A model generated the notes under the pieces. The model saw only the letters and a program-made list of their open reading frames with translations, did no database searches and was not told the origin of the DNA. A DNA stretch of 24,212 bases from a virus (lineage: Duplodnaviria > Heunggongvirae > Uroviricota > Caudoviricetes): IMG/VR virus record IMGVR_UViG_2529292882_000019. The stretch is one strand, 5' to 3'. Position numbers and translations under genes: made by a program. Positions 1-21,750 of the stretch are shown piece by piece (the stretch's first letter is position 1; each line of letters begins with the position of its first letter).

Positions 1-1236
1 CTACGATAACCGCGCATTCAACATGGCTATCTGTTCGTCGTTCATGTCATCAATCCACATACCGTAAATTTCATACACCATCTGCGCAGTTTCATGCCCC
101 ATTTGGCTGGCTATAAATGCCGGGTTCGCTCCTGCCGTCAACAGCCAGCAGGCAAAAGTATGCCGCGTATGGTACGGATTACGGCGGCGAATACCAGCAC
201 GTTTTACTGCTGCATTCCACCTTGCCCCCAAACTGCTTACCGAGTAATAAGGTTTCTGTTTTCCGTTACACACCCTTGGCATGAAAACAAAATGCAGTTT
301 TTGCTTTTCGGTTCTGCCGTACTCCCGATGATAAAAGGTGATTTCGCTTTTGCGATGATGCCCGGTCAGTTTGTATTGCTCCTTCAGTGCTTCAAGAGCA
401 GGCTGCAGTAGTGTTACTGTCCGGATCCCGGCATTTGTTTTTGGGGGACCGAACATATCAAGTATCGTCAGGTTTCTTCTGACATTCACTATTCCCTTTT
501 CGAGATCCACATCCTCCCACGCCAGAGCAGCCAGTTCCCCGTGACGAAGTCCTGAGTAAACGGCAAATTTCCACAAGTTCTGGCTCTGTCCTTTTTCACT
601 TTCCATTAATGCATTGAATTCTGTTTTAGATAACGGATCAGGCTTTATTCTGTTTCGCTGTAATTTTTTTACTCCTTCAAATGGTTTGGTTGATATAAAT
701 CCCGACTGATACGCAAAACGTAACAGCGAACAGAGCAGGGCGATATAGTTATCAACTGTGCGCACGGTTCTTCCTTTTTTGTTGGATCTTGGATTATCCA
801 GGTAAAGCGTTTCTCCATGCAGCAGTTCATTCCGGTAGTTTAAGATATCGCTATAACGAATATGTGATATCGGGGTACTTTCACAAATTATTATTCTGAG
901 TGTTTTTAATTGTGATTTCGTTTTCTTCATTGTGTTTGTTGTTAACTCTGTCTCTTTAATTTTTGTCCAGATATCACAAAGCTCCCCGAACGTTTTTATG
1001 ACTCTCGTTGTCACCATTTTTGCCCCAGCGCTGGACTGGGGAAAACGTCTTAAATACTCAAATTCACCGGAGTTTATTTCATGAACTATCAGCGCTCTTA
1101 AATTTCCGGCCTTTTTAATATTACTGTTTGTAATCTCCCAGCCTTTTAATGTTTCCCGACATCGTTTTCCTCGAAACATGAACCAGATGCGAATGTATCT
1201 ACCTCTAATCTCGACACCTGTTGGTAATTTAGACAT
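1..1236 (-). CDS. intR: Tyrosine site-specific integrase (phage integrase, Rac IntR-like), 411 aa
   Basis: 411-aa minus-strand ORF. C-terminal region carries the tyrosine-recombinase catalytic signature (HTRHTF ... Y in AGIRRRNPYHTRHTFACWLL...MVYEIYGMW). Start overlaps the stop of the excisionase-like gene. First gene of a minus-strand early operon. Confidence 0.9.
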   Translation of the reverse strand: MSKLPTGVEIRGRYIRIWFMFRGKRCRETLKGWEITNSNIKKAGNLRALIVHEINSGEFEYLRRFPQSSAGAKMVTTRVIKTFGELCDIWTKIKETELTTNTMKKTKSQLKTLRIIICESTPISHIRYSDILNYRNELLHGETLYLDNPRSNKKGRTVRTVDNYIALLCSLLRFAYQSGFISTKPFEGVKKLQRNRIKPDPLSKTEFNALMESEKGQSQNLWKFAVYSGLRHGELAALAWEDVDLEKGIVNVRRNLTILDMFGPPKTNAGIRTVTLLQPALEALKEQYKLTGHHRKSEITFYHREYGRTEKQKLHFVFMPRVCNGKQKPYYSVSSLGARWNAAVKRAGIRRRNPYHTRHTFACWLLTAGANPAFIASQMGHETAQMVYEIYGMWIDDMNDEQIAMLNARLS

Positions 1237-1237
1237 A

Positions 1238-1453
1238 TCATGAGTCTTTGATAAACTGATTTATCTTTGGATAGTTGTACCAGATAATCCCTCGTTTGCT
1301 GTCTGGCTTACCTAAAGGAGATACTCGCTTGAAGTGGAAGCCCTCCACCCAACAGTTCTGGCGGTATGCTTCAATTTGTCTGGCCCCCAGACCAGTACGA
1401 AGCATCAGACCGTATTCAACCATCCACTCTTCATTAAAAATCACTTGTGCCAT
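1238..1453 (-). CDS. xisR: Excisionase-like small DNA-binding protein, 71 aa from an RBS-supported ATG (ORF track extends to 1477)
   Basis: Small ORF immediately upstream of int on the same strand. GAGGTGA lies 4-10 nt before the ATG at 1453. Position and the 71-aa size match the Rac excisionase. Confidence 0.65.
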
Positions 1454-1552
1454 CGCATCACCTCTGGCGGGCGACAATATTAGACTGAAATTGACGCCCG
1501 ACGTTGATTATTAATAATCAGCTATGAAGTTTTAATTTGAATACAATGCAAC

Positions 1553-1741
1553 TCACGAGGACAGAAGTTTCTCGCAATTAAAATTTATCAGTTTTACTTT
1601 CTGCTCTCTGGAAACGCCTGCTTCTTTTTTCCCTGAGAGCATTTTTTCGCATTCTGATTTCGTTAATTTAGATTTTGAATATCTTATCCAGTTAGTAGGA
1701 GTGCCACCTTCTTTTTCAATAGTGGCGGTAATTTTATACAT
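1553..1741 (-). CDS. Small hypothetical early protein (YdaC-like position), 62 aa from a GGAGG-supported ATG; frame is open up to 1813
   Basis: Minus-strand ORF between ralR-like and xis. GGAGG sits 6 nt before the ATG at 1741. The longer 86-aa form would overlap the upstream gene. Confidence 0.45.
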   Translation of the reverse strand: MYKITATIEKEGGTPTNWIRYSKSKLTKSECEKMLSGKKEAGVSREQKVKLINFNCEKLLSS

Positions 1742-1964
1742 GAACACCTCCATTATTATTTCCAGTGGTTCGTTTATTCCATCGTTCGAGTGCTTCTTTT
1801 TCACTTCCACCATAGCCGGTTCGGGATTCGCATCCGTTACACTTCGCGCGGTAATATCCTGAAATGGCTTTCACCGTTACTGATGGACAACCACAAAAAG
1901 GGCATGGTTTGACTTTTGTGTATCGCACTGGTTTTTCTCCTGTGAGCTTTGTGGCTGCGCTCAT
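1734..1964 (-). CDS. ralR: Lar/RalR-family restriction-alleviation protein (zinc-ribbon; RalR is also described as a type I toxin)
   Basis: Small protein with CPFCG...CNGC four-cysteine motif, as in Lar-family proteins. ATGA start/stop overlap with exo at 1961-1964. Located in the early operon next to the recombination genes. Confidence 0.6.
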
Positions 1965-2641
1965 TTCCATTGCTCCCCAAATACAAAACCAATTTCAGCC
2001 AGTGCCTCGTCCATTTTTTCGATGAATTCTGGCACCATCTCGTCAAAACTCGCCATGTACTTTTCATCCCGCTCAACCACGACATAATGCAGGCCTTCAC
2101 GCTTCATACGCGGGTCATAGTTGGCAAAGTACCAGGCATCTTTTTGCGTCACCCACATGCTGTACTGCACCTGGGCTATGTAAGCCGACTTTATGGCCCC
2201 GAAACCACCGAGCCGGAACTTCATGAAATCCCGGGAGGTAAACGGGCATTTCAGTTCAAGGCCGTTACCGTCGTTGCATAAGCCATCGGGAGAGCAGGCG
2301 GTGCGCATAGTCTCGTCACGATAGATGATCGGGGATTCAGTAACATTCACGCCGGAAATGAACTCAAACAGGGCTCTGGCGTCGTTCTCGTACTGTTTTC
2401 CCCAGGCCAGTGCTTTAGCGTTAACTTCTGGGGTCACTCCGGTGCAGACCTCAGCCAGCAGGGTGTGGAAGTAGGACATTTTCATGTCAGGCCATTTCTT
2501 TCCTGAGCGGGGTTTTGCTATCACGTTGTGAACTTCTGAAGCTGTGATGACGCCGAGCCGTAATTTGTGCCACGCATCATCCCCTTGTTTAACAGTTCTC
2601 ACGTCGATTCCTGTACGTTGCAGGATAATGTCAGGAGTCAT
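1961..2641 (-). CDS. exo: Lambda exonuclease (Red-alpha), 226 aa
   Basis: Protein [15 protein letters not shown]...GFVFGEQWK is near-identical by recall to phage lambda Exo and has the same length. ATGA coupling to bet. Confidence 0.95.
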
Positions 2642-3417
2642 GCTGCCACCTTCTGCTCTGCGGCTTTCCGTTTCAGGAATCCAAGAGTTTTCACTGCTTC
2701 GGTCTGCGTCAGTTCTGATGATGCGCGAATGTCGCGGCGAAGTATCTGGGAACAGAGCGGCAATAAGTCGTCATCCCATGTTTTATCCAGGGCGATCAGC
2801 AGAGCGTTAATCTCCTGCATGGTTTCATCGTTAACCGGAGTGATGTCGCGTTCCGGCTGACTTTCTGATGCGGTATTTTCGACAATGCGCTCGGCTTCAT
2901 CCTTGTCATAGATACCAGCAAATCCGAAGGCCAGACGGGCACACTGAATCATGGCTTTATGCCGTAACATCCGTTTGGGGTGCGACTGCCACGGCCCCGT
3001 AACTTCTTTGCCTTCGCGGGTTTTGAATGGTTCGCGGCGGCACTCATCCATCCACTCGGTAACGCAGATCGGATGATTGCGGTCCTTGCGGTAAATCCGG
3101 CATGTACAGGATTCATTGTCCTGCTCAAAGTCCATACCATCAAACTGCTGGTTTTCATTGATGATGCGGGACCAGCCATCAACGCCCACCACCGGAACGA
3201 TACCATTCTGCTTATCAGGGAAGGCGTAAATCTCTTTCGTCCACGGATTAAGACCGTACTGGTTGGCGACGATCAGCAGCGCGATGAATTGCGCATCGCT
3301 GGCATTGCCTTTAAATGCTGTCTGGCGAAGAGTGGCGATCAGTTCCTGCGGGTCGACAGTATCCATGCCGACACGTTCAGCCAGCTTCCCGGCCAGCGTT
3401 GCGAGTGCTGTACTCAT
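2638..3417 (-). CDS. bet: Lambda Bet (Red-beta) single-strand annealing protein
   Basis: Protein [19 protein letters not shown]...AAEQKVAA matches lambda Bet along its full length by recall. Sits between gam and exo as in lambda. Confidence 0.95.
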
Positions 3418-3422
3418 TCGTT

Positions 3423-3722
3423 TTATACCTCTGAATCAATATCAACCTGGTGACGCGCAATGGTTTCAACCATGTACCGGATGTGCTCCGCCACGCGTTC
3501 CTGAAATTCAACATCGTCATCAAATGCGCGACTGATTGCCTGTTTGCTGGCACCGTGGCGTTGCAAATGGTCGATGCAGAGCGATTCAAACAGGTGCTGG
3601 GGCAGACCTTTTTCCAGGTCGTCCGCCAGTTCCGTTTCTTTTTCTTCGCGAACGATCTTCTGGTAGTGGCGTGACCATGCCAGCTCTTCAATGCGATCAA
3701 AAATCGGGCATGTGCTCATCAT
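3423..3722 (-). CDS. gam: Gam, RecBCD inhibitor (short GamS-like form)
   Basis: C-terminal two-thirds (WSRHYQ...[34 protein letters not shown]...HQVDIDSEV) matches lambda Gam by recall. Lies directly upstream of bet. Confidence 0.85.
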
Positions 3723-5730
3723 CTGTTACCCCAAAATTTTCAAGTTTGTTTGCGATCATCATTGCAATACCCGGAATTAATGGCGCTGAGGCTATACCTG
3801 CAGGATTCGCACATAAACCGTAAACCGCCGCAATCACCACTTGTCTTTTCCAGTCGAGTTTTTCTAATGATGAAGCTGCTGCTTCGCCAGTTTCATCACT
3901 GCAATCGCGATGCGGATCGCTGCCAGCATTCTCCTTGTGTGGATGTTCAGCGCCTTCCATTTTCTCCGGCTCATTTTCCCGAACTTCAACCTGATTCTCG
4001 TCATCGAATGTTTCCTGATATATTGCGTCGCCCATCACCGCACCACAGTCAGGGCAGTTATCCCCGCCAGACTGACCGCAGGCATTGCAAACTTTTTCTA
4101 CTTCCTGTTGCGCCACTGGTTCAGGCTGTTTCGTTTCTGGCTCGTTTTGTAACGCATTTGGGCTGTTTTGTTCCGCTTTCTGGTCGTTCTGTTCCGATTC
4201 TTGTTGGTTCTGGTTCACTGAATCGCGGGTTTCAATCCCCTTCACCCATTTCGGATCATTCGGGTCGCTAATCCCCTCAACAAATTCACCACGTGATGCA
4301 GCAAGCAACTTATCGGCATCGACAGGATTTTTTGATGGAATGTTTTTCCGGGCTTCATGGAGTTCTGCCCGCAGTTCTTGATATTTCGCATCAACAGAAT
4401 TTACCTGTGACTGAGCATCCAGCGGCTGCGTGTCCTGATGATGTTCAGTTGCGTCCGGTTCCATTGTTTCAGCCTCTCCCTGTTCATCTGCCGTTGTTCC
4501 AGATGGTTGCGGTTTTTCTTCATCATCCTGTTTTCCTTCTTCTGTTACACGCTGCGGCATCGGGGCAGAGGAACGACCGCAGGCAATATCCACGATTTCC
4601 GGATCAGGGTTGGCATGATCAGTTTCAGTCAGTACTTTGTTCAGATATTCAGTGACGTGCGCGGGGGTGACCTCGATCCCAATTGGTGCTTCTTTCACGG
4701 ACGCAACCACGATGGCGCGGGAATAATCCAGCCCGCCAGGCATGGTGATGAATTTGTCGCGGAAAACAGAAAAGGGCGGTTTATTTTCAGCGATAATTTC
4801 CTCAATGCGTTTAGCGTGTGCCGGATGAAGGTTATAGATGTCCACGTCCATTGAACGGGCAAGTACGCCAGTGGCTACATCGCGTGCCAGTGACGTCAGA
4901 TCGTGGACGAAACCTTCGCCGCGATCGGTGAGGTTCCCGCCGCCAGCATTAGCACCGGAAGCCGTGCGAGTGATGCGTGAAACACGATTCCCTTTTCGCC
5001 ATTCTTTTGTCAGAAGACCGCGATCAATGTGTTCGGTATCCAGCCAGGCTGAAATGAAATTCTTAAATTCATAGGGCTGATGTTTTTTCGTGATAGAGAA
5101 AACTGCCTTAATTGCATCAGTCAGGCGGAGCAGGGCGGCATTATCCAGAGTTGTCGGTTCTGCCATGCCGCGTATGGCCAACAGCAGATTCTGGACATAG
5201 CTGTTTTCCTGATCCATCTCAAGAGCAGTAATGTGTTCGCGTTGTTCACGGGTGGCATGATGCAGGTATTTCCGATCCCCGGCCGCATACGTAAAAATGT
5301 GCAGAAGACGCTGAGTGAACCGCAAAGTGGCTACAGAGACTTCACAATCCTGGCAATCCCCGTGGGCGTCTGCCTGCGCGTTTTCTTCCTGGCCTCCCGT
5401 CAGTTTTTCAGTTTCCTGAGCATTGTCCTGATAGTGAACGTCGTCTGGCGCTGCTCCCGGTTTTAGTTCCCAGGTCATGGAGTCTTTGCTGAGTTGATAG
5501 CGTTCACTCCAGGTAAAATCGATCTCACCTTCAGGGGGAAGGTCATTAACGACAGGAAAATTTGTGGCAACAGCTTTAAAATAGTTGCTCAGTTTTTTAC
5601 CTGACTTAACGATCAGGTAGTCCAGAGTGGCACAGGTCGATTCAAAATCGTCACTTGCCCACAGGACGACGTCAGGTTCACCGGATGATTTTTTCGCTTT
5701 CCGTAACAGGAAGAGTGGTTTTGTGCTCAT
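3697..5730 (-). CDS. Large early-operon protein of unknown function, 677 aa: globular N-terminal half, long acidic Q/E/D-rich low-complexity linker, CxxC...CxxC zinc ribbon, hydrophobic C-terminal tail
   Basis: Long uninterrupted minus-strand ORF with an upstream GAGG. Its 3' end overlaps the gam start by 26 nt. Occupies the kil/cIII position upstream of gam. No family recognised from sequence. Confidence 0.7.
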
Positions 5731-5828
5731 TGTTTTTTAACCTCAACTCAGATTAAAATTACTGCGAGTGATGAATAAATGTCCCAGGTTCTTCACTCAG
5801 GCCTGCACGTTGTGCAGGCTTTCTTTTT

Positions 5829-6104
5829 TCAGATTTCACCTTTTAATTTCATTGCAATCAGAGTTGCCAGAAATCCGGCTTTTTTTTCTGCGGGCAGATT
5901 CTTTCCGATGTGAACCAGACTCATTTTTGTGACACCTTCATCAAGTGTTTTTACGTTGCCTGATGGGCCGTCGATATCAACCACAGTGAATGGGGTTTCT
6001 TTATTTTCTGTTTTAATCACATAGCCAATACGCTTTCCTTCCAGATTAACCTCATGAACAATGTCATCGGTAGTTAAAACAGTGACTTCATAATTGGTAA
6101 TCAT
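5829..6104 (-). CDS. racC: Small early protein, 91 aa (RacC-like by position and size)
   Basis: AAGGAG lies 5 nt before the ATG. The run of 91/56/73-aa genes here matches the Rac racC-ydaE-kilR arrangement. Symbol assigned by synteny and size, not sequence recall. Confidence 0.55.
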   Translation of the reverse strand: MITNYEVTVLTTDDIVHEVNLEGKRIGYVIKTENKETPFTVVDIDGPSGNVKTLDEGVTKMSLVHIGKNLPAEKKAGFLATLIAMKLKGEI

Positions 6105-6177
6105 TTTTTCTCCTTAATTAAGGTTGAGCGAATCCCTGCCATTGCTGGCATAAATTCAGTTTCGCATAGTCAGTTAA

Positions 6178-6348
6178 TTAAAGTTCGTGTGCCATCTGGT
6201 CTTTTTCGGCACATATTTCACTACAATATTTTTTCATTTCCGTCGTTGGGATAACTCCATGCATGAAATGAAGTGGTCTTTTAATGCTTTTGCTTTCTTT
6301 AATTCCTTTATTGCAAAGGTGGTAAGCACATTTTATTTTCTTAGTCAT
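6178..6348 (-). CDS. ydaE: Small zinc-binding protein, 56 aa (YdaE-like); not in ORF track because it is under 60 aa
   Basis: Hand-translated: [56 protein letters not shown]. Cys pairs CxxxxC and CxxxC. ATGA overlap with the upstream kilR-like stop. Confidence 0.5.
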   Translation of the reverse strand: MTKKIKCAYHLCNKGIKESKSIKRPLHFMHGVIPTTEMKKYCSEICAEKDQMAHEL

Positions 6349-6569
6349 CACCATGACTCCGCCTTTACAGGTAAACCATCACGACCGAGGAAGACTTTAA
6401 TCATGCAGTCAGTAATGCATGTTTTTGTGGTCAGGTTACGAATATAAAGTTTTCGCTTTTTAATATTGTTTGCCGAGGCGATATATGTCCGGCCTTCATG
6501 AAGAACATAATCACCAGGAGTCACACACTGACGTGGTATTTCATCAGTTCCGAAGTGATGAGCAATCAT
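6348..6569 (-). CDS. kilR: KilR-like small protein, 73 aa from a GGAGA-supported ATG (ORF track gives a 77-aa form starting at 6581)
   Basis: The internal ATG at 6569 has GGAGA 6 nt upstream and gives the 73-aa size of Rac KilR. Position matches Rac early-region order. Confidence 0.5.
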
Positions 6570-6993
6570 AATTATCTCCATTTTTACAAATGAATTTTGT
6601 CGATGCGGTGCCTGGTGCCTCCAGGTGACGTTAACCAGTTAACAATTAACGCCGGATATTTCACCCATAACTCTGCTACGAAGGACAATAGCTTTTTAAC
6701 TGTTCCGCGTGCGCTTAGCCGCATTCACCGCATCACAAAATTCACTTTAAAAAGGGCGGACATCAGTCGAACTTCAAGAAAAAACTGATGCCGCCAAGAC
6801 TACACACAGCAGTGTTGTTATTCACAACCGGAGGCGCACTCCCACCATTTAAATTTAACAGGCAAGACCGACTCTTTATGGATATCGGAAATGCGCCTTC
6901 GTGTTGTGCCCGGTTTTATTTCACCACCTCCGGGCTTTGGTGGCCTCGGCTATACCCCTACAGCGAGAATATTGAATTAATCCAAATAATGGA

Positions 6994-7146
6994 TTAGCAA
7001 GTATTTCTGGCAAGCCAGCGACGTGCGCCCGTTTCAGTTTTGAATGTCTTGCTTTTGGTATAAGTCATGGCGGTGAACGTTCCATCCTGGTTGGGGAACA
7101 CGCCACACACCAGGGATTCGTTGTTGCCGAGGTCGATTTTTTGCAT
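6994..7146 (-). CDS. ydaF: YdaF-like small protein, 50 aa (hand-translated; not in ORF track)
   Basis: MQKIDLGNNESLVCGVFPNQDGTFTAMTYTKSKTFKTETGARRWLARNTC with GAGGTG RBS. Replaces the track ORF 7065..7256, which is in another frame. Confidence 0.55.
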   Translation of the reverse strand: MQKIDLGNNESLVCGVFPNQDGTFTAMTYTKSKTFKTETGARRWLARNTC

Positions 7147-7156
7147 TTTTCGCACC

Positions 7157-7291
7157 TCACATTTTGTTGTTGCGGATAGAGGCTTCTGCCTGCCAGAGAT
7201 CCCAGTCGTTGCTGCGTAGAGCCTGTACAGCCTGGCTGTAAGTGATACCGCAACAATCCATCAAATACTGAACTACTTCGTAATGCACCAT
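7157..7291 (-). CDS. ydaG: YdaG-like small protein, 44 aa (hand-translated)
   Basis: MVHYEVVQYLMDCCGITYSQAVQALRSNDWDLWQAEASIRNNKM with GGGAGAG RBS. Lies between the repressor gene and the ydaF-like gene as in Rac. Confidence 0.55.
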   Translation of the reverse strand: MVHYEVVQYLMDCCGITYSQAVQALRSNDWDLWQAEASIRNNKM

Positions 7292-7484
7292 TTTATCTCT
7301 CCCTTTAACGCCGGGTGGCGGAACTAAAACCTACAGCGCCGTGCTGTTCTTGATAGAAATATTAGTAACACGGATATTTTAAGTCAACAGTATGGCGTAT
7401 AATATTTTTGATTTGGTAACTATGTAAATGTTTTTTCAAGGGAAAAATATTAGTTATACAGCTGATTTGCAGAAGTTATGGCAC

Positions 7485-7518
7485 AAAAAAAACCGACTAA
7501 GACGTCGGTTTTTTTTGT
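7485..7518. terminator. Bidirectional rho-independent terminator downstream of the repressor gene
   Basis: Stem ACCGAC/GTCGGT with a 6-nt loop, flanked by an A8 run on one side and a T8 run on the other. Confidence 0.7.
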
Positions 7519-7542
7519 TGTGGATGGGGTAGTGAGCGGTGG

Positions 7543-8004
7543 CTACTGGTTACGTTTCTTTAGTGCCAGCATGTTCTCGAAGGCTTCCTCGTAGAGCTTG
7601 TTTAGTCCACGTAGCTGGTTAAGGAGTTTGGCTTTTTCTGACGCAGGTAGAATCTCGAAGAGGTTAAGCAACTCTGCCTGTTCTTCATTGACCAGCCTCC
7701 ATCCTTTGCCTGAAAAGCTATCATCATAAGTATCTGATGATCTTACATAATTCATTAAGTCTTTAAGGTCTTCTCGAATGTCCTCTGGTTTTACCTTTAA
7801 CAGAGCCGCAAATTTTAGCGCAGCGTCGGTATTTACCGGTATCTTGCCGTTCAGATACTGGCTAACGGTGCCTTGAGATTCGAATCCCAACAACTCAGCC
7901 GCCAGCTCTTGAGTCAGCTTCAGCTCTTTTTTTCTTGCATTCCATGCGGCTTTTAAATTCTTGCTCGCTTCTGGAGTTGCAATCACTTCGCGTGTTTTTT
8001 TCAT
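7543..8004 (-). CDS. racR: Prophage repressor (CI functional analogue, RacR-like), 153 aa
   Basis: N-terminal XRE-type HTH (LTQELAAELLGFESQGTVSQYLNGK). Divergent from a Cro-like gene across a 100-bp AT-rich intergenic region. No obvious SD, compatible with a leaderless maintenance transcript. Confidence 0.75.
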   Translation of the reverse strand: MKKTREVIATPEASKNLKAAWNARKKELKLTQELAAELLGFESQGTVSQYLNGKIPVNTDAALKFAALLKVKPEDIREDLKDLMNYVRSSDTYDDSFSGKGWRLVNEEQAELLNLFEILPASEKAKLLNQLRGLNKLYEEAFENMLALKKRNQ

Positions 8005-8105
8005 ACATAGAGTTTATTTGTTTTACCAATATTATCAAAGATAGTTTGACTATTGATCTTTAAAATTAGTAGGGCTAATATTTGCTCGAGGCATAACGTA
8101 GAAGG
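8005..8105. promoter_or_regulatory. Divergent promoter/operator region of the immunity switch
   Basis: AT-rich intergenic region between divergent repressor and Cro-like genes. Contains a 13-bp palindrome ATAGTTTGACTAT and related partial repeats. Confidence 0.5.
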
Positions 8106-8387
8106 TTGGCTATGAACTTAAGAGACTATTTAAAAGAGAAACATATCACCCAGCTACAGTTTGGGAAGCTAACGGGTTTATCTCAGGTGCATGTAAGTCG
8201 AGTGCTGGGGGGCTATGAAAGATTCAGCCCTGAAAAAGCATTACGTGTTGCTGAAGTAACGAATTTCGAGGTTACACCTCATGAACTCCGGCCTGATATC
8301 TACCCGAATCCAACCGACGGTTTACCTGTTGGATGTAAGGCTAACACACAAAATACACAGGAGTTGATTCATGAAAATCAGGCATGA
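8106..8387 (+). CDS. ydaS: Cro-like HTH regulator (YdaS-like), 93 aa
   Basis: HTH motif ITQLQFGKLTGLSQVHVSRV. First gene of the rightward operon, divergent from the repressor. Confidence 0.7.
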   Translation: MAMNLRDYLKEKHITQLQFGKLTGLSQVHVSRVLGGYERFSPEKALRVAEVTNFEVTPHELRPDIYPNPTDGLPVGCKANTQNTQELIHENQA

Positions 8388-8793
8388 GCACATCGAATCA
8401 GTGCTGTTAGCCCTGGCAGCCGAAAAAGGGCAGGCGTGGGTCGCTAACGCAATTACTGAAGAATATCTGCGCCAGGGGGGAGGTGAATTGTCTCTGACAC
8501 CAGGCAAGGACTGGAACAATCAGCAGAACATCTATCGCCGTTGGTTAAAAGGTGAAACGGAAGCGCAAAGGGAAAAAATTCAGAAGCTGATCCCAGCAAT
8601 TCTGGCAATCCTTCCGCGGGAGCTGCGTCACCGACTCTGCATCTTCGATACCCTGGAACGCCGTGCATTACTGGCGGCGCAGGAAGCGTTGAGTACGGCA
8701 ATTGATGCGCATGATGACGCAGTCCAGGCCGTTTACCGTAAAGCGCATTTCGGCGGTGGTGGAGCGTCCGACGATTCTGTTGTAGTGCATTGA
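8371..8793 (+). CDS. ydaT: YdaT-like protein (CII-like functional analogue), 140 aa
   Basis: 140-aa ORF overlapping the ydaS-like stop, with GGAG RBS. Size and position match Rac YdaT. Confidence 0.65.
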   Translation: MKIRHEHIESVLLALAAEKGQAWVANAITEEYLRQGGGELSLTPGKDWNNQQNIYRRWLKGETEAQREKIQKLIPAILAILPRELRHRLCIFDTLERRALLAAQEALSTAIDAHDDAVQAVYRKAHFGGGGASDDSVVVH

Positions 8794-8812
8794 TTGAATA
8801 GGGTATCCAATA

Positions 8813-9226
8813 ATGAAAATCAAACCGTACATAAATGCCGGAAATCTTACTCCCGGCGAACTACGAGACTGGATCCTGAAACTTGCAAAAAATGCAGAAA
8901 TTGCGGGTTGGGGTACAGAAACTTCGGTTCGGAAGCTTCAGAGCGCAGAACTTAGCCTGCGCTCAGTTATGGACGATTTATCCCCAAGAATTAATTTTCT
9001 GGGGTCAGAGCAAATAATTCGTTCGGAAGATCACTCCAGCGAAGTTGCGGAAGTTCTGAATACTCTGAGGATAACTTTTGCTGCCGTTCGCGATATTCAA
9101 CGAACCATTCTCTCATTGATTTCTCAGCTTCAAGAAATTGATAGTCGCATTCCTGACGGGGGTCATAGAGAGCGTCTTCCAGAATGTGAAGAGCAAGGAC
9201 AGGGGAAACAGATAAGGGATCAGTAA
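8813..9226 (+). CDS. Hypothetical protein, 137 aa (conflicts with the minus-strand ORF 8991..9446)
   Basis: Co-directional with ydaS/ydaT but weak RBS. Overlaps the opposite-strand ORF by 236 nt; only one of the two is likely real. Confidence 0.35.
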   Translation: MKIKPYINAGNLTPGELRDWILKLAKNAEIAGWGTETSVRKLQSAELSLRSVMDDLSPRINFLGSEQIIRSEDHSSEVAEVLNTLRITFAAVRDIQRTILSLISQLQEIDSRIPDGGHRERLPECEEQGQGKQIRDQ

Positions 9227-9446
9227 TACGTTTTTCACTTGCCTGGTATAGCAATCTCGCCAGCGAATCATAGCTACTGGGGCTCAGGAGAGAATCCCGT
9301 GAGTGATTTGTAAGAATCAGGTGAAAGCGGGTGAGAACTATAGCCCTGCATGTTACCAGGTTAACCATGTCGTGGTCGTGCTGGTTAATTTTGTACACAG
9401 TGCGCATGTGATTTTTAATTTTTTGGCAAACAGCCATTAAAGACAT
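8991..9446 (-). CDS. Hypothetical protein, 151 aa (conflicts with the plus-strand ORF 8813..9226)
   Basis: Near-consensus RBS AAGGAGG 7 nt before the ATG at 9446. Divergent from the replication gene. Confidence 0.4.
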   Translation of the reverse strand: MSLMAVCQKIKNHMRTVYKINQHDHDMVNLVTCRAIVLTRFHLILTNHSRDSLLSPSSYDSLARLLYQASEKRITDPLSVSPVLALHILEDALYDPRQECDYQFLEAEKSMREWFVEYRERQQKLSSEYSELPQLRWSDLPNELFALTPEN

Positions 9447-9525
9447 GTCGAACCTCCTTTGGTTCTGTTGATTGGGGAATCACAGATTATATCCGGAGGA
9501 AGGTTCGACACCAGATGAGGCAATT

Positions 9526-10650
9526 ATGGTTAAGGCTAAAAACATGCCAAATCCCATGCCAAAAACTAAGGCAAACAATGAGCCTTATCGCAAGGTAAAA
9601 ATAACGATATGGGATGATCCCAAATTTAGGGCGTTATCTCCTCTGCCTCCAAGTGGACAGAGTTTGTTTATTTATCTGCTGACCAGTCCATTTACCGGGA
9701 TTATTCCTGGGTTGTTTAAAGCCGGGCGGGCAGCAATGGCTGAAGAGTTGGGGTGGGATATCGAAGCCTTTGACTTAGCCTTAGGCGAAGCCATGAATCT
9801 TGGCATGGTGAAAGCAGATATCAAAGCCAGAGTTTTTTGGCTCCCGAATGCTGCGAAACACAATCCGCCAAACTCGATAAATGTCATTAAATCCTGGGCA
9901 AAGGCATTCGCTTTAATTCCTGATTGCCCTCTCAAATGGGAGGCCAGGGAATCGCTGAGAGCCGCGTCCTACGGGGTTTCTGAGGCTTTGGGGATGGCAT
10001 TCGATAAGGCAATCCCTTTGCCTGAGGATAAGCCTAAGGATAAGGCTAACGCTTTGTCATGCGGTATCCAGATAACAGATAACAGATATATAAACCCCAC
10101 ACATAACGCGCGCGTGCGCGAGAGTGCTCCGACCAGTGAGGCAAATGGCGTGCCGTTGCAGACAGCGGAACCTGATTACCTGGAAGGCCTGAGCGAACCC
10201 ATCGGGAAATTTCCTATGACCGATGGCTGGCATCCGTCGCCGGATTTTCGACGACGGGCTGCGCTGTGGGGCGTGGCTCTTCCTGAGCCGGAATTTACAC
10301 CAACTGAACTTGCCGCCTTCCGGGACTACTGGGCAGCGGAGGGCAAAGTGTTCACGCAGGTTCAGTGGGAGCAGAAATTCGCCCGTCACGTAAATCACGT
10401 CAGGGCGCAGGTTAAACCAGTCAGCAAGGGGGTAAACCATGCAGCAACACCAGGTGGCACCGCATCACGGGCAGTTCAGGAAATTCGGGCAGCACGTGAG
10501 CAGTGGGAACGTGAAAACGGATTTATCAGCGACGGAAACGGCGTGGAAGCTGTGGGAACTCATGGGGGAGGTTTATTCGAACCGCTGGACCCAGAAGAAC
10601 GGGGCCGCACCTTCGAAGCTCTGGATTGCACAGATTGGCGCGATGACTGA
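9526..10650 (+). CDS. Replication initiator / replisome organiser (O-like, DnaT-like C-terminal region), about 374 aa from the RBS-supported ATG
   Basis: Large plus-strand ORF directly upstream of a lambda P-like gene. Internal iteron-like repeats at 10020-10110. GAGG lies 5 nt before the ATG at 9526; the track start at 9472 is TTG. Confidence 0.65.
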   Translation: MVKAKNMPNPMPKTKANNEPYRKVKITIWDDPKFRALSPLPPSGQSLFIYLLTSPFTGIIPGLFKAGRAAMAEELGWDIEAFDLALGEAMNLGMVKADIKARVFWLPNAAKHNPPNSINVIKSWAKAFALIPDCPLKWEARESLRAASYGVSEALGMAFDKAIPLPEDKPKDKANALSCGIQITDNRYINPTHNARVRESAPTSEANGVPLQTAEPDYLEGLSEPIGKFPMTDGWHPSPDFRRRAALWGVALPEPEFTPTELAAFRDYWAAEGKVFTQVQWEQKFARHVNHVRAQVKPVSKGVNHAATPGGTASRAVQEIRAAREQWERENGFISDGNGVEAVGTHGGGLFEPLDPEERGRTFEALDCTDWRDD

Positions 10651-11104
10651 GCAGCAAATCCGGCTGGTCTGCCGCCAGTGCATGGACCGCTGCCGGGCGG
10701 GTGAAACATGGCCTCCGGACCTGGCTGAGTTTGTGGCGCTGATTTCGGAGAGTGGGGCAAATCCATTTGGTCTGACGGTGGATGCTGTGATGGAGGAGTA
10801 CCGCCGCTGGCGCAATGAGTCCTGGCGATACGACGGAAGTGATAAGTACCCGTGGTCTCAGCCTGTGCTGTATCACATTTGCCTCGAGATGCGTTCAAAG
10901 GGGATTGAGCGCCAGATGACCGAAGGGGAATTAAAACGGCTTGCAGAACGGCAGCTGACGAAATGGGCAAAGCATGTTAGTAACGGCCTGGGCGTTCCGC
11001 CAGTCCGGCGACAACTGGCGGCACCCAAACGCCCGTCGGGGCCAACGCCAATTGAGTTACTGAAACAGGAATATGAACGCCGGAAAGCGGCTGGGTTTGT
11101 TTGA
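10439..11104 (+). CDS. Lambda P-like replicative helicase loader, 221 aa
   Basis: C-terminal half aligns by eye with lambda P (PPDLAEFVALI vs PSPGQFVAWC; YPWSQPVLYHIC vs YPWKSNAHYWLV; MTEGELKRLAERQL vs LTDAELRRKAADEL). GGGGG RBS before the ATG at 10439. Overlaps the initiator ORF out of frame. Confidence 0.7.
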   Translation: MQQHQVAPHHGQFRKFGQHVSSGNVKTDLSATETAWKLWELMGEVYSNRWTQKNGAAPSKLWIAQIGAMTEQQIRLVCRQCMDRCRAGETWPPDLAEFVALISESGANPFGLTVDAVMEEYRRWRNESWRYDGSDKYPWSQPVLYHICLEMRSKGIERQMTEGELKRLAERQLTKWAKHVSNGLGVPPVRRQLAAPKRPSGPTPIELLKQEYERRKAAGFV

Positions 11105-11136
11105 GTTGAGAAGTAATTTTTACCGGGAGGAAATTT

Positions 11137-11892
11137 ATGGAGACTGTTTTTGACGCACTGAAAGCGATGGGAAAAGCTACGTCGGTAGAGCTGGCTGCGC
11201 GACTTGATATCAGTCGTGAAGAAGTACTGAACGAGCTGTGGGAACTGAAAAAGGCTGGCTTCGTTGATAAAAGCGTATACACCTGGCGTGTGGCTGATAA
11301 CAACGTTCAGCAGGAACAGCCAGCGCCAGAAGAACAGCCGGAAGAAACCTCCACGGCGACAGTAGCGAAAATCTCAGAGTGCGATTTAACCGCGACGATT
11401 GAACAACGCGGACCACAAACGGCGGATGAACTGGCTACGCTGTTCAGTACAACATCCCGCAAAGTGGCTTCAACGCTGGCAATGGCAATCAGCAAAGGTC
11501 GTCTGATTCGCGTTAATCAGAACGGTAAATTTCGTTACTGCATGCCGGGCGGTAATTTACCAGCAGAGCCGAAAGCAGCATCGGTAACGGAAAATGATGG
11601 TAAAGCCTTTCCTCAGCCAGCAGGTGTTGCGTTACCAGTACAGGAAGCTGCAACACAGGAAGATATTAAAACAGAAACGGTGGCGGACATTGTGCAGTCG
11701 CTGCCATCGTTCACCGAAACGCGAGCGGATGACCTGATTTTACCATCGCTGCATATGGCAAACCGCGAACTGCGTCGGGCGAAAAGTCATGTCCAGAAGT
11801 GGGAGCGAGTCTGCGCCGCGCTGCGGGAGCTGAATAAATATCGCGATATTGTCGCCCAGCTTTGCCAGGAGGAAACCAGTGAGCAACATTAA
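11137..11892 (+). CDS. Hypothetical protein with N-terminal winged-helix-like region, 251 aa
   Basis: Strong RBS GGGAGGA. Uninterrupted ORF in the post-replication (ren/nin-equivalent) region. Confidence 0.6.
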
Positions 11893-12436
11893 TTACCAGG
11901 CACTGCGAATGGCGGCAGAAAATGCAACCCCTGGCGAATGGTGTTCTGATGATTACTATGGGGTAATTGCTGATGCCGGACTGAACGCAAATTACTACAT
12001 AGCATCATGCTCAGGACCAGATAATCGCGCCAATAAGCGATTCATAGCAGCAGCCAATCCGGCTACCGTGCTGGCACTGCTGGATGAACGGGAAGCCCAA
12101 AGCAAACGCATTGCAGAACTGGAGACTAATCTTGCTGCACTTGCGGCGGAGAATGCGGGGCTGAATAAATTTATCGTACAGAGTTGCTACGTGCTTGATG
12201 GCGAGCAGGATGAACTATCTGATGCGTATATCTGCGCAATAGACGGAAGGATGCCGCAAATCCCAGCCACCGACGCTTTCTTGTCGGATGTGCGGGCTGG
12301 GGCGTTTAACGACCTTTGCGCGGCGTTTGTCAGGCACGCAAAAGTTGCAGGACTGGATGATGCCGATACCGTAACGCTTAAGGAAGTGACAGAAGCATTG
12401 TTGCATTGTGCGGAACAGATTCGCGCGCCTGAATAA
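11879..12436 (+). CDS. Ea22/ead-like family protein, about 185 aa from a GTG with AGGAGG RBS
   Basis: AGGAGG precedes the GTG at 11879. Protein resembles lambdoid Ea22-like proteins by recall (NATPGEWC motif, coiled-coil centre). Confidence 0.55.
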
Positions 12437-12506
12437 TTAAATTTAGTGTTGTAAATAAAATTTAATCCTTAACCGGAGGGATTTCTGCACCCTCAAATAA
12501 TCAGGA

Positions 12507-12526
12507 GGCCGCCCAAAAGGGCGGCT
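12507..12526. terminator. Bidirectional hairpin terminator between the Ea22-like gene and the 4-TM gene
   Basis: Stem GCCGCCC/GGGCGGC with AAAA loop. Moderately U-rich downstream on both strands. Confidence 0.5.
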
Positions 12527-12536
12527 GTTCCGCTGT

Positions 12537-13091
12537 TCAATTATCTAAAATTGTGCTAAATCTTTTTATTACCATTAAGAACGTTATAACAGTGATAAAA
12601 AAGGATGTATAGGCTAAAAAGCTAACAATATATGCAGGTGCGCGAAAATACCATTTCATTAAATCCACTGCATTGTCAGGCAGGAAATATATTATCACTG
12701 AAAATATAACCAATACTATTGAAGTTAATATTGCATAAGCGACGTTGTGGCATAACTGCTCATATATGGTTTTGTTAGTGTTTAATGATATCAATTTGTC
12801 TCGGGATTTGTTTCCTTCAATTATGTCTGATATCTTAGTGATGGTTTTTTGTTTTTGTTCATAAATCATTATTACTGCACTCATTAATAGTGCTGTTGTA
12901 ATAGCCCCGAAGTTAACAAAGACGGAAGCAATTGCCGGTTTCATTATTCCGTATGTCCAGCACAGAACGAAAGAAAGAGATAACGGAACAATAAAATGTA
13001 CGATAATGTCGCTCATCAACATTGTTCCACGCTGATCTGACATTGTTTTGTAGTGTTTTATTATTACACCCAGCACATTTATTTTATTCAT
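12537..13091 (-). CDS. Small integral membrane protein with four predicted TM helices, 184 aa; putative effector of a two-gene cassette
   Basis: Four hydrophobic segments (IIVHFIVPLSLSFVLCWTYGI; AIASVFVNFGAITTALLMSAVIMIY; VAYAILTSIVLVIFSVIIYFL; APAYIVSFLAYTSFFITVITFLMVI). ATGA start/stop overlap with the upstream gene and AGGGGTGA RBS. Strongly AT-rich codon usage unlike the flanking prophage genes. Confidence 0.75.
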   Translation of the reverse strand: MNKINVLGVIIKHYKTMSDQRGTMLMSDIIVHFIVPLSLSFVLCWTYGIMKPAIASVFVNFGAITTALLMSAVIMIYEQKQKTITKISDIIEGNKSRDKLISLNTNKTIYEQLCHNVAYAILTSIVLVIFSVIIYFLPDNAVDLMKWYFRAPAYIVSFLAYTSFFITVITFLMVIKRFSTILDN

Positions 13092-14019
13092 ATAATCACC
13101 CCTTTGTTTCCGCTATGCAGTTCTAACAATATATCATTAGAAAGGTTTTTTATCGTGTCATGAAGTGCTGTTAGATCAGGTATGCCTGTTAATGGGTCGA
13201 TTTTTAGATCATTATCATCTAACTCTGCGGAAATTCCTTTTTTTAGTATGGTATCATAATTGAAAACGACAGTCCGACTGCCGAGTTGTAAGCTTACTTT
13301 TATTGCATCACATTTATCTTCAATAATCTCAATGATGTTTCCTATATTCTTGTTTCTTAAATCCCTGAAACTTCCGAACATGCCATCGTTTGCTTTTATT
13401 ATTAAGTCTGTCTTGATGTTTGTTTTGTTTTGACCAAAGGAATCAGCAATGTCTTTTGGTGCTTTATATCCTTGAGCCTTAATTTGTTTTAATTCGGAAT
13501 TGAGAATATATTGAGGGATTTTCTTATGATGTAATGGATTGATTCTTGCTTCGAGTTGAAATTTGTTTTTTAGATATTCAGTGATAGAATCAGAAAGGAC
13601 ACCTCGAGCAGAAATATTATCGCAAGAGTGGAATGCAATAATTCCTTCTTTAAGGGCGTCTGGTAGGTATATTAAAATATAACGTTCTTTGAGTGTTACA
13701 TCATAAGCAGTTGTCCTATAGTGGATTTTTTTGAGTTTTACATCTTTTATTTCACTGCTTTCTCCATATTTCCCAACTTTTATATAACCATATATAATTT
13801 TTTTGAGTTATCAAAGTGAAGTTTAGCGTGTTGTTCCAGAGATATTTTAGTTTTGGATACGCCAAACTCGATGGGGGTGTTTTTATATAGAGTAAAATAA
13901 TCAACAAAAAGTTCATATGCCGTTTTTTTATTACTTAAACCCAATTCATTAAGTTTTTTGCTGGCTCGACTGCCTTTATGGGTCAATACGCGGAATGAAT
14001 AGAAATTAACGCTGTGCAT
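13088..14019 (-). CDS. Soluble protein of about 310 aa encoded in two frames: 79-aa ORF (14019..13780) plus a 240-codon open frame (13807..13088) joined by a -1 shift at an A7 tract (13798..13804); possible pseudogene, homopolymer error or slippage
   Basis: AAGGA RBS 7 nt before the ATG at 14019. The downstream frame has no stop for 240 codons and no ATG/GTG/TTG before codon 143, which is unlikely by chance in AT-rich DNA. Heptamer A_AAA_AAA sits in the 25-nt window where both frames are open. Contains an Rx4H motif (RINPLH). Confidence 0.6.
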
Positions 14020-14043
14020 GAAAAGTCCTTTTGAACATATAGG

Positions 14044-14070
14044 AATATACTAGAACATAAATAGATGCAA
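14044..14070 (-). promoter_or_regulatory. Candidate sigma70 promoter for the two-gene cassette
   Basis: On the minus strand: TTGCAT, 15-nt spacer, TATATT, ending about 25 nt upstream of the cassette ATG. Spacing is suboptimal. Confidence 0.2.
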
Positions 14071-14421
14071 TGCATAAAGGAAAAGCTACCGCAGGGCGAA
14101 CTCACCCACCGATAGCTCTTAACTGGTTGTTTGTAAAAGATAATACATAAATTGGGGCTGTGTAAAGAGGTAAGCATCGTCAGGGCAAGGGAGATGTGTT
14201 AGGCGATATTGGTAAAATTTTCGTTGAGGATAAAAACGGTTTGCGGGAAAAGGAGAGTTAAGTAGAATTGCTGCGGGTGCTTGAGGCTATCTGCCTCGGG
14301 CATGAACACCAACGGCAGATAGATAAAAGCCCCACCCGACTATAAATCGAAGTGAGGCCCCTATATGCTCGTCACATATAGATTGCCTCTTACTGACCGA
14401 AAGGTCAAGGAGAAGCAGGCT

Positions 14422-14577
14422 ATGAAGCAGCAAAAGGCGATGTTAATCGCCCTGATCGTCATCTGTTTAACCGTCATAGTGACGGCACTGGTAACGAGGA
14501 AAGACCTCTGCGAGGTACGAATCCGAACCGGCCAGACGGAGGTCGCTGTCTTCACAGCTTACGAACCTGAGGAGTAA
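14422..14577 (+). CDS. hokD: Hok/Gef-family type I toxin, 51 aa (HokD/RelF-like)
   Basis: MKQQKAMLIALIVICLTVIVTALVTRKDLCEVRIRTGQTEVAVFTAYEPEE: single TM helix plus conserved C-terminal periplasmic region of Hok toxins. Followed by a strong terminator. Confidence 0.8.
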   Translation: MKQQKAMLIALIVICLTVIVTALVTRKDLCEVRIRTGQTEVAVFTAYEPEE

Positions 14578-14646
14578 GAGACCTGGCGGGGGAGAAATCT
14601 CCCGCCACCTCTGATGTGTCAGGCATCCTCAATGCACCCACACTTA

Positions 14647-14675
14647 ACCCGCTTCGGCGGGTTTTTGTTTTTATT
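14647..14675 (+). terminator. Rho-independent terminator downstream of hok
   Basis: Stem ACCCGC/GCGGGT with TTCG loop, followed by TTTTTGTTTTTATTTT. Confidence 0.8.
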
Positions 14676-14797
14676 TTCAACGCGTTTGAAGTTTTGGATA
14701 GTGCCGGAATAGAATCAAAAATACTTAAGTAGCGTGCAGGGAGAAGAGGGATGGACCCCGAACAGGGGAGTGCTATTTATCTGGAAGGATTCTGTTG

Positions 14798-14971
14798 ATG
14801 AAAATCGAAGAATTACGTGAAATTTTTAGTGAAGATGGCCTCTATGCTGTGCGCGTTGAGAATGGAGAAGTTATCTACACAACGTTAATTCCTGATGATC
14901 ATGTGATTTTATCTATCGAGGCATTCATTGAATACCTGGAAAGGCTCGGTTTCAAGGTGGTTCGGGAATGA
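14798..14971 (+). CDS. Small hypothetical protein, 57 aa (hand-translated; below ORF-track cutoff)
   Basis: MKIEELREIFSEDGLYAVRVENGEVIYTTLIPDDHVILSIEAFIEYLERLGFKVVRE. GGAAGGA about 10 nt upstream of the ATG. Confidence 0.4.
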   Translation: MKIEELREIFSEDGLYAVRVENGEVIYTTLIPDDHVILSIEAFIEYLERLGFKVVRE

Positions 14972-15030
14972 GTTATAATTCGTAAGCCAGCCTGAACAAC
15001 TGGCAACCTACAGCGCCATTGGAGATAGCA

Positions 15031-16817: not shown

Positions 16818-16893
<76 letters not shown>

Positions 16894-16896
16894 TAT

Positions 16897-16971
<75 letters not shown>

Positions 16972-18389: not shown

Positions 18390-18390
18390 T

Positions 18391-18807: not shown

Positions 18808-18877
18808 AGCGGCGCACGAAAAACGCGAAAGCGTTTCACGATAAATGCGAAAACTTTAGCTTTCGCGCTTCAAATGA

Positions 18878-18903: not shown

Positions 18904-18919
18904 ATTCATTACATGGGGA

Positions 18920-21749: not shown

Positions 21750-21750
21750 T

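Follow-up and report, generated by a model that had tools for sequence, protein, structure and literature searches.

Positions 1-8793 of the DNA analysed here (IMG/VR virus record IMGVR_UViG_2529292882_000019, Caudoviricetes; the whole stretch of 24,212 nucleotides is called the window) very probably represent, from a Rac-family lambdoid prophage at ttcA, the arm with the integration, early-left and immunity genes, in which a Rac backbone carries two cassettes of other types. One is an immunity cassette; the other is a lambda-type gam-bet-exo (Red) cassette, which blastn and BLASTP place where the Rac prophage of Escherichia coli K-12 has recT and the nuclease domain of RecE. A first-pass annotation, made by a model from the letters and their open reading frames (ORFs), had proposed a Rac-type early region joined to lambda Red by module exchange, and this is borne out, far above chance level, by the blastn blocks and the BLASTP identities. 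Its statement that the prophage has Red rather than recET is correct for recT and the RecE nuclease domain, which have been replaced, but not for the rest of recE, of which ~618 codons persist as an intact ORF.

Block structure and the reality of the joints

The mosaic can be read directly from blastn matches of the window to K-12 Rac, lambda and phage Rac-SA53 (features are collected in Table 1). Rac similarity extends over 1-1939 (98.0%) and is followed by lambda similarity over 1950-3677, which corresponds to lambda 31338-33070 and comprises exo, bet and most of gam (92.9%). Rac matches resume at 3876-5025 and 5422-6968 (the 5' part of recE, racC, ydaE and kilR; 90-91%) and again at 7015-7327 (ydaF-ydaG; 92%). 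The following segment, 7327-8365, has no K-12 match and is 96% identical to Rac-SA53, after which the Rac ydaT match runs from 8365 to 8791 (91.6%). No lambda DNA was found by blastn outside 1950-3677 in the whole 24-kb window. The gene string was taken from a six-frame ORF listing and from the RefSeq genes of E. coli OkiPb01695, the complete genome closest to the window, which is 98.5% identical across 95% of window 1-8791. The BLASTP and DNA comparisons with K-12 Rac and lambda that the first-pass annotation had suggested thus confirm the block pattern, and the small genes of 91, 56, 73, 44 and 50 aa that it had matched to Rac by order and size are RacC, YdaE, KilR, YdaG and YdaF, in Rac order.

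The site of integration agrees with a Rac backbone. In a public sequence 100% identical to the window (L008), and in all other places returned, ttcA lies directly beside intR, in the ttcA/dbpA neighbourhood. The converse arrangement, a lambda-like phage that imported the Rac integration and immunity genes, would account for Exo and Bet being 94-95% identical to lambda and for the replication genes to the right, where a DnaT-like initiator and a lambda-P-like helicase loader stand in for Rac ydaU/ydaV. However, only 1.7 kb of the 24-kb window matches lambda DNA, with Rac on both sides, integration is at the Rac site ttcA via IntR, and recET occupies the same flanks in 69 of 80 relatives, among which the Red block is a minority insert. 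A lambda backbone is thus highly improbable, and we regard the Rac prophage as the recipient of the Red genes.

These 80 relatives, the best IMG/VR loci related to the truncated RecE protein encoded here (RecE'), also describe how the cassettes are distributed in the population. K-12-type recET is found in 38 of them, SA53-type recET in 31, Red with the tail described below in 5 and a DnaQ-type cassette in 1; the remaining 5 have no assigned type. Three types of repressor are found in combination with either kind of recET, and Red is seen with the 153-aa repressor. Recombination and immunity cassettes therefore reassort freely in Rac relatives. The RecT of Rac-SA53 (367 aa; locus L004, 2814-7063) has no BLASTP match to K-12 RecT, though both match Pfam RecT, and between the RecE nuclease domains of Rac-SA53 and K-12 the identity is just 29%; for these reasons, the recET genes of the two types are themselves distinct cassettes.

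Neither joint of the Red cassette is peculiar to this record. Among 5426 complete E. coli genomes, 16 have the ralR-exo joint without interruption and 17 have the gam-recE' joint (~0.3% in either case), both are also contiguous in IMG/VR contigs, and the layout is seen beside ttcA in independent complete genomes. Window 1-15730 is 100% identical to JH768573.1 of GCA_000261385.1. The identical RecE' protein is present on contigs in 63 blocks of a public collection, with ttcA adjoining in all five places listed. Since the joints are contiguous in independent complete genomes and in public contigs, the mosaic is not an assembly artefact. The far right end of the window does look affected by assembly, with a perfect inverted repeat of 674 bp that reaches the last base, but against both joints in 16-17 complete genomes, in IMG/VR contigs and on contigs from the 63 blocks, the chance that two prophages were merged in a draft genome is negligible.

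The Red cassette and the nuclease-less RecE

By sequence, exo-bet-gam has each of the features that would define lambda Red, namely an Exo of the YqaJ/PD-(D/E)XK type with its catalytic residues, an overlapping Bet and a Gam upstream of bet. Residues D119, E129, K131, R28 and R45 of Exo are all kept relative to lambda, and the ratio of nonsynonymous to synonymous substitution rates (dN/dS) is 0.12-0.14 for exo, bet and gam. The retained catalytic residues and the low dN/dS suggest that the Red genes are functional. Through Gam, the prophage would also have gained inhibition of RecBCD, for which K-12 Rac has no such inhibitor.

The assignment of these genes to lambda holds at the level of protein identity (Table 1), but lambda need not be the donor, as 3677-3857 matches neither lambda nor Rac and is shared with Shigella phage 75/02 Stx. 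Along the block, identity to lambda is 92-99% over exo and bet and 81-88% over gam, and it collapses at ~3680; approximately the first 14 codons of gam are not lambda-like. For the adjoining bridge segment (3678-3875), blastn gave no match in lambda, K-12 Rac or Rac-SA53. The match to phage 75/02 Stx is continuous through the bridge, at 88% across window 1967-3857 with a local identity in the bridge of ~64-70%. The bridge also encodes a 61-residue tail of RecE', which tblastn located in 6 of 50,697 phage records (four phages), always between a RecE-like ORF and gam. A search of 5.8 billion proteins for the source of tail and bridge returned only short fragments annotated 'ExoVIII, partial'. 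A faint similarity to KilR, 33% over 42 aa with E ~0.3 in a tiny database, was dismissed as chance.

Because phage 75/02 Stx shares the stretch from exo to the tail, the recE'-gam-bet-exo joint predates this prophage and travels as a unit among lambdoid phages. A single recent transfer of the Red block straight from phage lambda into this lineage is accordingly very unlikely. Of the references, lambda matches exo and bet best (93-99% in 100-nt windows), but it lacks the bridge and the RecE' tail, and the synonymous divergence (dS) from lambda, at 0.17-0.21 in exo and bet and 0.85 in gam, is not that of a recent transfer. The 88% match to 75/02 Stx further places the joint before the split of the lineages. 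Lambda proper would thus be a relative of the donor and not necessarily the donor.

Upstream of gam lies the gene for RecE', which is 74% identical to K-12 RecE 1-587 and 91% identical to Rac-SA53 RecE 1-620 (BLASTP). Pfam PF06630 covers its residues 2-182 (229.6 bits). The PDDEXK domain PF12684, which Pfam finds in K-12 RecE (615-850) and SA53 RecE (860-1024), is absent from RecE'. The PD-(D/E)XK domain of K-12 RecE comprises residues ~606-866, and neither RecT nor RecE(588-866) was found by tblastn in the entire window. Against the NCBIfam ExoVIII equivalog, RecE' scores 991.6 bits, below the cut-off of 1269, and covers model positions 1-600 of 877. Although it is annotated as 'RecE family exodeoxyribonuclease', by domain content it is not exonuclease VIII.

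The truncation is at a fixed point. In alignments, RecE' and full RecE part after '...SDETGE', and the DNA of the window, K-12 and SA53 parts at one and the same nucleotide at the RecE boundary (K-12 residue 587/588), a break that coincides with the known RecE domain boundary. Right after '(D/S)ETGE', the sequences of close relatives branch into four C-terminal versions: a PDDEXK domain of K-12 type, one of SA53 type, the 61-aa tail and a DnaQ-like exonuclease. The DnaQ-like version is represented by P0045/P0050 (820 aa) and locus L070, where the RecE N-terminal region is fused at this motif to a 3'-5' exonuclease (PF16473), a polarity opposite to that of the RecE nuclease. An exhaustive search through 1.84 billion proteins shows the family to be small (258 cluster representatives with E <= 0.001). 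Within 60 diverse members, 14 have a PDDEXK domain, 9 a DnaQ-like 3'-5' exonuclease and 2 RecT as a fusion partner, and in all others no nuclease could be recognised.

Does the truncated protein still serve a purpose? With its nuclease domain missing, its score below the ExoVIII cut-off and a region that is dispensable for standard recombineering (PMC11611040), RecE' could be a dead, unselected remnant of the swap that has yet to decay, with only gam-bet-exo mattering, and some Shigella copies are indeed fragments of just 55-97 aa. We consider this unlikely. The homologue in phage 75/02 Stx (682 aa) is an intact ORF even at 57% amino-acid identity and dS >1, and the comparison of the two gives a dN/dS of 0.23 overall, 0.09 in the core (residues 241-400) and 0.12 in the new tail. 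The exact protein recurs in the 63 blocks mentioned above, and most of the 60 diverse family members likewise have no recognisable nuclease domain. An AlphaFold2 model (AF2, from the family alignment) contains confident domains at 1-97 and 125-400 with a predicted local distance difference test (pLDDT) score >90, in all 350 confident residues, besides a disordered acidic stretch and low-confidence tail helices. Intact and under purifying selection, RecE' is probably a functional protein.

What it does is less clear. The protein has a CxxC...CxxC motif. Foldseek found no fold relative in PDB or BFVD (nothing below E=0.1), and PADLOC gave no match that would indicate a defence role. Two confident domains without fold relatives, one fixed '(D/S)ETGE' boundary with at least four partners and purifying selection on the tailed form in Rac-like and Stx phages together lead us to propose, tentatively, that the first ~600 residues of RecE could be an autonomous protein of the early-left operon, working with whatever end-processing cassette lies downstream. 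Candidate functions may include the enhancement of linear-linear recombination reported for full-length RecE, or host targeting. If the proposal is true, the Rac/Red mosaic is a natural domain dissection, and RecE-N has a function independent of the RecE nuclease and RecT.

Immunity, small early genes and the right part of the window

Table 1. Features of the window with coordinates, strand and supporting evidence.
Feature	Position	Strand	Evidence
intR, Rac-type tyrosine integrase (411 aa)	1..1236	-	99.8% to K-12 IntR; window begins at intR stop codon
xisR excisionase (71 aa)	1238..1453	-	100% to K-12 XisR
rcbA/ydaC-like DUF1187 gene (62 aa)	1553..1741	-	96.8% to K-12 RcbA; NCBIfam PRK09750, 136 bits
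RalA antitoxin small RNA, antisense partner of ralR	1557..1735	+	Rfam RF02694, full-length, 222 bits (gathering score 170)
ralR, type I toxin / restriction alleviation gene (64 aa)	1734..1928	-	96.9% to K-12 RalR; NCBIfam equivalog 161 bits (cut-off 113)
Left joint of recombination cassette	1929..1960	.	Rac homology stops at 1939 (11 nt upstream of ralR start), lambda homology starts at 1950 (10 nt past exo stop); blastn and alignment of window, K-12, lambda and Stx phage
exo, lambda exonuclease (226 aa)	1961..2641	-	93.8% to lambda Exo; Pfam YqaJ; dN/dS 0.135 vs lambda
bet, single-strand annealing protein (259 aa)	2638..3417	-	94.6% to lambda Bet; dN/dS 0.116 vs lambda; 4-nt overlap with exo, as in lambda
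gam, RecBCD inhibitor family (98 aa, short form of lambda Gam)	3423..3719	-	Pfam PF06064, 187 bits; 79.6% to lambda Gam residues 41-138
Bridge segment, encoding gam 5' end and 61-aa RecE' tail	3678..3875	-	Matches neither lambda nor Rac recE
recE' (677 aa): RecE residues 1-~618 (K-12 1-587) plus new hydrophobic 61-aa tail	3697..5730	-	Stop overlaps gam start by ~23 nt
racC (91 aa)	5829..6104	-	94.5% to K-12 RacC
ydaE (56 aa, zinc-binding)	6178..6348	-	73% to K-12 YdaE, 87.5% to Rac-SA53 YdaE; NCBIfam YdaE_coli
kilR, FtsZ inhibitor (73 aa)	6348..6569	-	97% to K-12 KilR, 100% to Rac-SA53 KilR; NCBIfam PRK11354
kilS small-RNA region homologue	6749..6845	-	93.9% over all 98 nt of K-12 kilS; putative function from K-12 annotation
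Joint at K-12 sieB position	6969..7014	.	~555 bp in K-12 (L002 8626-9181), 46 bp here; blastn blocks
ydaF (50 aa, DUF1391)	6994..7146	-	92% to K-12 YdaF; Pfam PF07151
ydaG (44 aa)	7157..7291	-	90.9% to K-12 YdaG
Putative leftward early promoter region (PL equivalent)	7292..7480	-	Candidate operator copies at 7361-7375 and 7449-7463
Perfect 15-bp inverted repeat with A and T runs, just downstream of repressor gene	7483..7518	.	100% complementary, 6-nt loop
Prophage repressor (153 aa, HTH_3), Rac-SA53 immunity type	7543..8004	-	100% to Rac-SA53 'DicA'; Pfam HTH_3
Divergent control region between repressor and Cro-like gene (putative function)	8005..8111	.	Third operator-like copy at 8065-8079
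Cro-like YdaS-family helix-turn-helix protein (91 aa)	8112..8387	+	100% to Rac-SA53 'DicC'; 32% to K-12 YdaS over 50 aa; Pfam YdaS_toxin 30.8 bits (cut-off 30)
ydaT (140 aa), CII-position regulator	8371..8793	+	92.9% to K-12 YdaT; Pfam PF06254
mom, followed by com	18920-19645
gin invertase gene	19837-20430
Invertible tail-fibre G segment	20502-23500

The immunity switch had been described in the first-pass annotation as Rac-type. This is accurate at the level of the Rac family, given the identity of the repressor and the Cro-like protein with those of Rac-SA53, but it does not extend to K-12 specificity. The repressor has no similarity to K-12 RacR (BLASTP E=26) and does not match the NCBIfam RacR equivalog, against which K-12 RacR itself scores 245 bits, and the Cro-like protein is only distantly similar to YdaS. 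Similarity to Rac proteins, on which that annotation had made its reading depend, is therefore present in the small genes; the repressor is dissimilar to that of K-12 Rac but matches Rac-SA53. The repressor reaches 35.1 bits with the NCBIfam DicA subfamily model, below the cut-off of 101, so the 'dicA' label in the Rac-SA53 record is a loose analogy only. With breakpoints identical to those here (7325 and 8365), a sibling prophage (L007) carries a third pair, made up of a 135-aa helix-turn-helix protein and a 75-aa P22-Cro-like protein. The immunity genes at 7327-8365 are one of at least three exchangeable cassettes at fixed breakpoints, with a Rac-family layout. The prophage would then be heteroimmune to K-12 Rac.

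Candidate control elements flank the repressor gene. Promoter-like sites are found on the minus strand at 7428-7399 (scoring 10/12), with a copy of the candidate operator on either side, and at 8038-8011. The candidate operator motif ATTAGTN4CN3T has three copies, only at the positions given in Table 1, and is faintly suggestive of operators. The inverted repeat at 7483-7518 looks like a bidirectional terminator.

The small early genes follow K-12 Rac except at the sieB position. SieB, the superinfection exclusion protein encoded between kilR and ydaF in K-12, has no tblastn match anywhere in the window, and the E. coli IGC_EcoliInv_1.1 sibling prophage is collinear with the window at 6969-7014. 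Among Rac relatives, some have sieB and some do not, with no relation to cassette type. In OkiPb01695 and Rac-SA53, another segment (rac10/rac11) takes the place of ydaF/ydaG.

Several features to the right of ydaT were also observed. Immediately after it, at 8813-9446, two ORFs overlap on opposite strands, one of 137 aa on the plus strand (8813-9226, phrog_37051) and one of 151 aa on the minus strand (8991-9446, no family); each is called in some sibling assemblies, and likely at most one is real. In the nin region, a low-GC (33-34%) cargo slot on the minus strand (~12450-14250) lies between an Ead/Ea22-like gene and hok. It contains a 184-aa gene (12537-13091) and ORFs of 97 and 79 aa, which are the two ends of one 310-aa protein (phrog_15676). 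As this protein is intact in a sibling (L009) and split here, the copy in the window looks disrupted. Other siblings carry different pairs at the slot, 294+153 aa (L007 and L010) or KwaA/KwaB of the Kiwa defence system (L011), which suggests a hot spot for defence or cargo genes; PADLOC gave no match for the low-GC cargo genes of the window or for the sibling cargo genes. Adjacent, also in the nin region, is a hok/sok-type toxin-antitoxin locus (14275-14577), with Rfam sok at 14275-14424 (106 bits) and a Mok/Hok-like ORF at 14365-14577 (phrog_251). Between the Q antiterminator gene (15797-16453) and the holin gene, and close behind the former, are genes for tRNA-Thr(TGT) and tRNA-Gly(TCC) (16818-16971). 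In Stx phages, tRNAs and stx are found at this position.

The Rac-like prophage is interrupted at 18805, where a Mu-like prophage has inserted that occupies 18805-24212. The sequence from there, starting TGAAGCGGCGCACGAAAAACGCGAAAG, is precisely the right terminus of phage Mu (minus strand, Mu 36717 down to 35022, 97.2%), and the preceding 152-aa ORF of the lysis region (18349-18807) takes its stop codon from this Mu end. Because the Mu-like prophage starts at 18805, the Rac-like morphogenesis genes are not visible from the window, and an earlier suggestion that they had been lost by deletion, as in K-12 Rac, was withdrawn. The 674-bp inverted repeat consists of 19837-20510 and 23539-24212 (100% complementary). 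Its second arm is an inverted copy of gin at the place where Mu-like prophages in complete genomes have the constant tail-fibre part (compare L092), and the repeat is probably an assembly effect of the flipping G segment in a draft genome.

Module exchange and comparison with known systems

The arrangement would be explained by an exchange of everything between the ribosome-binding site of ralR and RecE codon ~618, a stretch that in K-12 encodes RecE 588-866 and RecT. The exchange would concern exactly the recombination-proficient unit: 'RecE nuclease domain plus RecT' would have left and 'Gam plus Bet plus Exo' would have entered, the surviving N-terminal part of RecE being closed by the new 61-aa tail. 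Exonuclease and annealase would have moved as a pair. An annealase works only with its cognate exonuclease (Exo with Bet, RecE with RecT), and it is for this reason that the two move together. On derepression, a leftward promoter near 7400 would drive ydaG, ydaF, kilR, ydaE, racC, recE', gam, bet, exo, ralR, xis and int, as the gene orientation and the promoter-like site suggest.

The exchange most likely came about when co-resident lambdoid prophages or infecting phages recombined homologously within conserved flanking sequence, which for the Red cassette would be ralR and the N-terminal region of recE, and for immunity ydaG and ydaT. Red- and RecET-type recombinases of such elements promote this kind of exchange. 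Lambda is known to acquire Rac DNA through recombinase-driven relaxed homologous recombination, and lambda-rev carries recET (PMC3945230). More broadly, lambdoid Rec modules occur in 34 sequence-type combinations among 314 phages (PMC12315714).

Some points weigh against reading the region as a working Rac/Red mosaic formed in this way. Extended homology between the donor types is not obvious at the junctions, and for this reason the first recE'-tail-gam joint may have been made by illegitimate recombination and then spread via flanking homology. For the bridge (3678-3875), no source was identified besides the same arrangement in the Stx phages. The Red block is only ~93% identical to lambda, a distance that does not fix the direction or the date of the exchange. 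Dissimilarity of the repressors is the sole basis of the predicted heteroimmunity, and the operator pattern was derived from the same three copies that it then found. The expression and activity of Red and RecE' are likewise predicted from sequence.

As a mosaic, the region is genuine, textbook lambdoid mosaicism, a further combination in a well-known combinatorial family. Taken by itself this carries little weight: modular exchange is the textbook case for lambdoid phages, and their recombination modules are known in dozens of combinations. Public genomes already contain the exact sequence, correctly annotated by automatic means, and the joint is also present in published phages. We found no paper that explicitly describes the Rac/Red joint, with a truncated RecE beside Gam, in a literature search swamped by matches to 'receptor', and Rac-SA53 was named only in an unrelated survey. 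The main residual interest, a modest one, is that the N-terminal part of RecE exists as a conserved protein of its own and that the '(D/S)ETGE' joint recurs. The region can be viewed as a natural experiment, in which the swap occurred exactly at the RecE boundary (residue 588) that recombineering researchers picked empirically, the cognate exonuclease and annealase moved together, and Gam was brought into a backbone normally without a RecBCD inhibitor. With the RecE N-terminal region left separate and conserved, it offers a clean handle on the role of RecE-N. It also shows 'Rac' in E. coli to be a family with interchangeable immunity and recombination cassettes, which matters when K-12 Rac biology, such as the essentiality of RacR, sbcA and recET, is extrapolated to other strains.

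Compared with K-12 Rac (NC_000913.3, 1411899-1434958), the window shares the ttcA site and 90-98% of DNA identity, with intR, xisR, rcbA, ralR/RalA, recE (587 codons), racC, ydaE, kilR, the kilS region, ydaF, ydaG and ydaT in the same order. It differs in lacking recT, the RecE nuclease domain and sieB, in its unrelated repressor and only distantly YdaS-like Cro-like protein, and in its replication genes, a DnaT-like initiator and a P-like loader (PHROGs) instead of ydaU/ydaV, for which blastn found no match in the window. Rac-SA53 (KU052037) is closer in immunity, with an identical repressor and Cro-like protein, 91% identity in the N-terminal part of recE and 93-96% in backbone DNA. In contrast to the window, it has a 1048-aa RecE with a divergent PDDEXK domain, a 367-aa RecT, and rac10/rac11 at the place of ydaF/ydaG.

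A further relative is KingRac, an active and complete 46.8-kb, inducible and particle-forming Rac-like phage of mouse-gut E. coli that replaced K-12 Rac at ttcA in the mouse gut (Frazao et al. 2019, PMC6731689). The ttcA prophage of IGC_EcoliInv_1.1 is very probably KingRac, judging from the strain name, the mouse and the statement in that paper that Rac was replaced at ttcA. It has the same layout of ralR, exo, bet, gam, RecE' (657 aa), racC and ydaE, a repressor of the 153-aa type, ydaF and ydaT, with 95-96% identity over most of 1-8791; it differs in having a Rha-family gene in place of kilR, and ydaU/ydaV as replication genes. Because this prophage shares the layout, the Rac/Red combination is compatible with a viable phage.

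Outside the Rac family, Shigella phage 75/02 Stx, POCJ13, PhiR5_2 and phiSTEC1589-Stx1c have exo, bet, a 98-aa gam and a RecE-like ORF of 682 aa that lacks the nuclease and bears the same hydrophobic tail. Their DNA is 88% identical over window 1967-3857 and their KilR 93%, whereas the integrase, the genes adjoining exo, the immunity region and the late genes are different and the body of RecE' is only 57% identical. The 'RecE-2' proteins of lambdoid Rec modules, nuclease-less and with an unexplained role, are similarly encoded in early-left operons (Zheng et al. 2025, PMC12315714). They are described as distant relatives of Rac RecE, whereas RecE' is a close one (74-91% over the shared part).

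With lambda Red itself, the window has in common the gene order, the bet/exo overlap, the catalytic residues of Exo and the high identity of Exo and Bet. Its Gam is the 98-aa short form, with 80% identity and ~14 non-lambda codons at its start, and the neighbours differ, with recE' upstream instead of kil/cIII and ralR downstream instead of orf60a. Conceptual counterparts are lambda-rev and an engineered lambda in which RecE(588-866) and RecT replace exo and bet, used to measure recombination (De Paepe et al. 2014, PMC3945230). The same two modules and the same two phage types are involved, and in the engineered construct RecE is likewise cut at residue 588. Those phages are, however, the mirror image, with recET placed in a lambda backbone in the laboratory, whereas the window presents a natural Rac backbone with Red.

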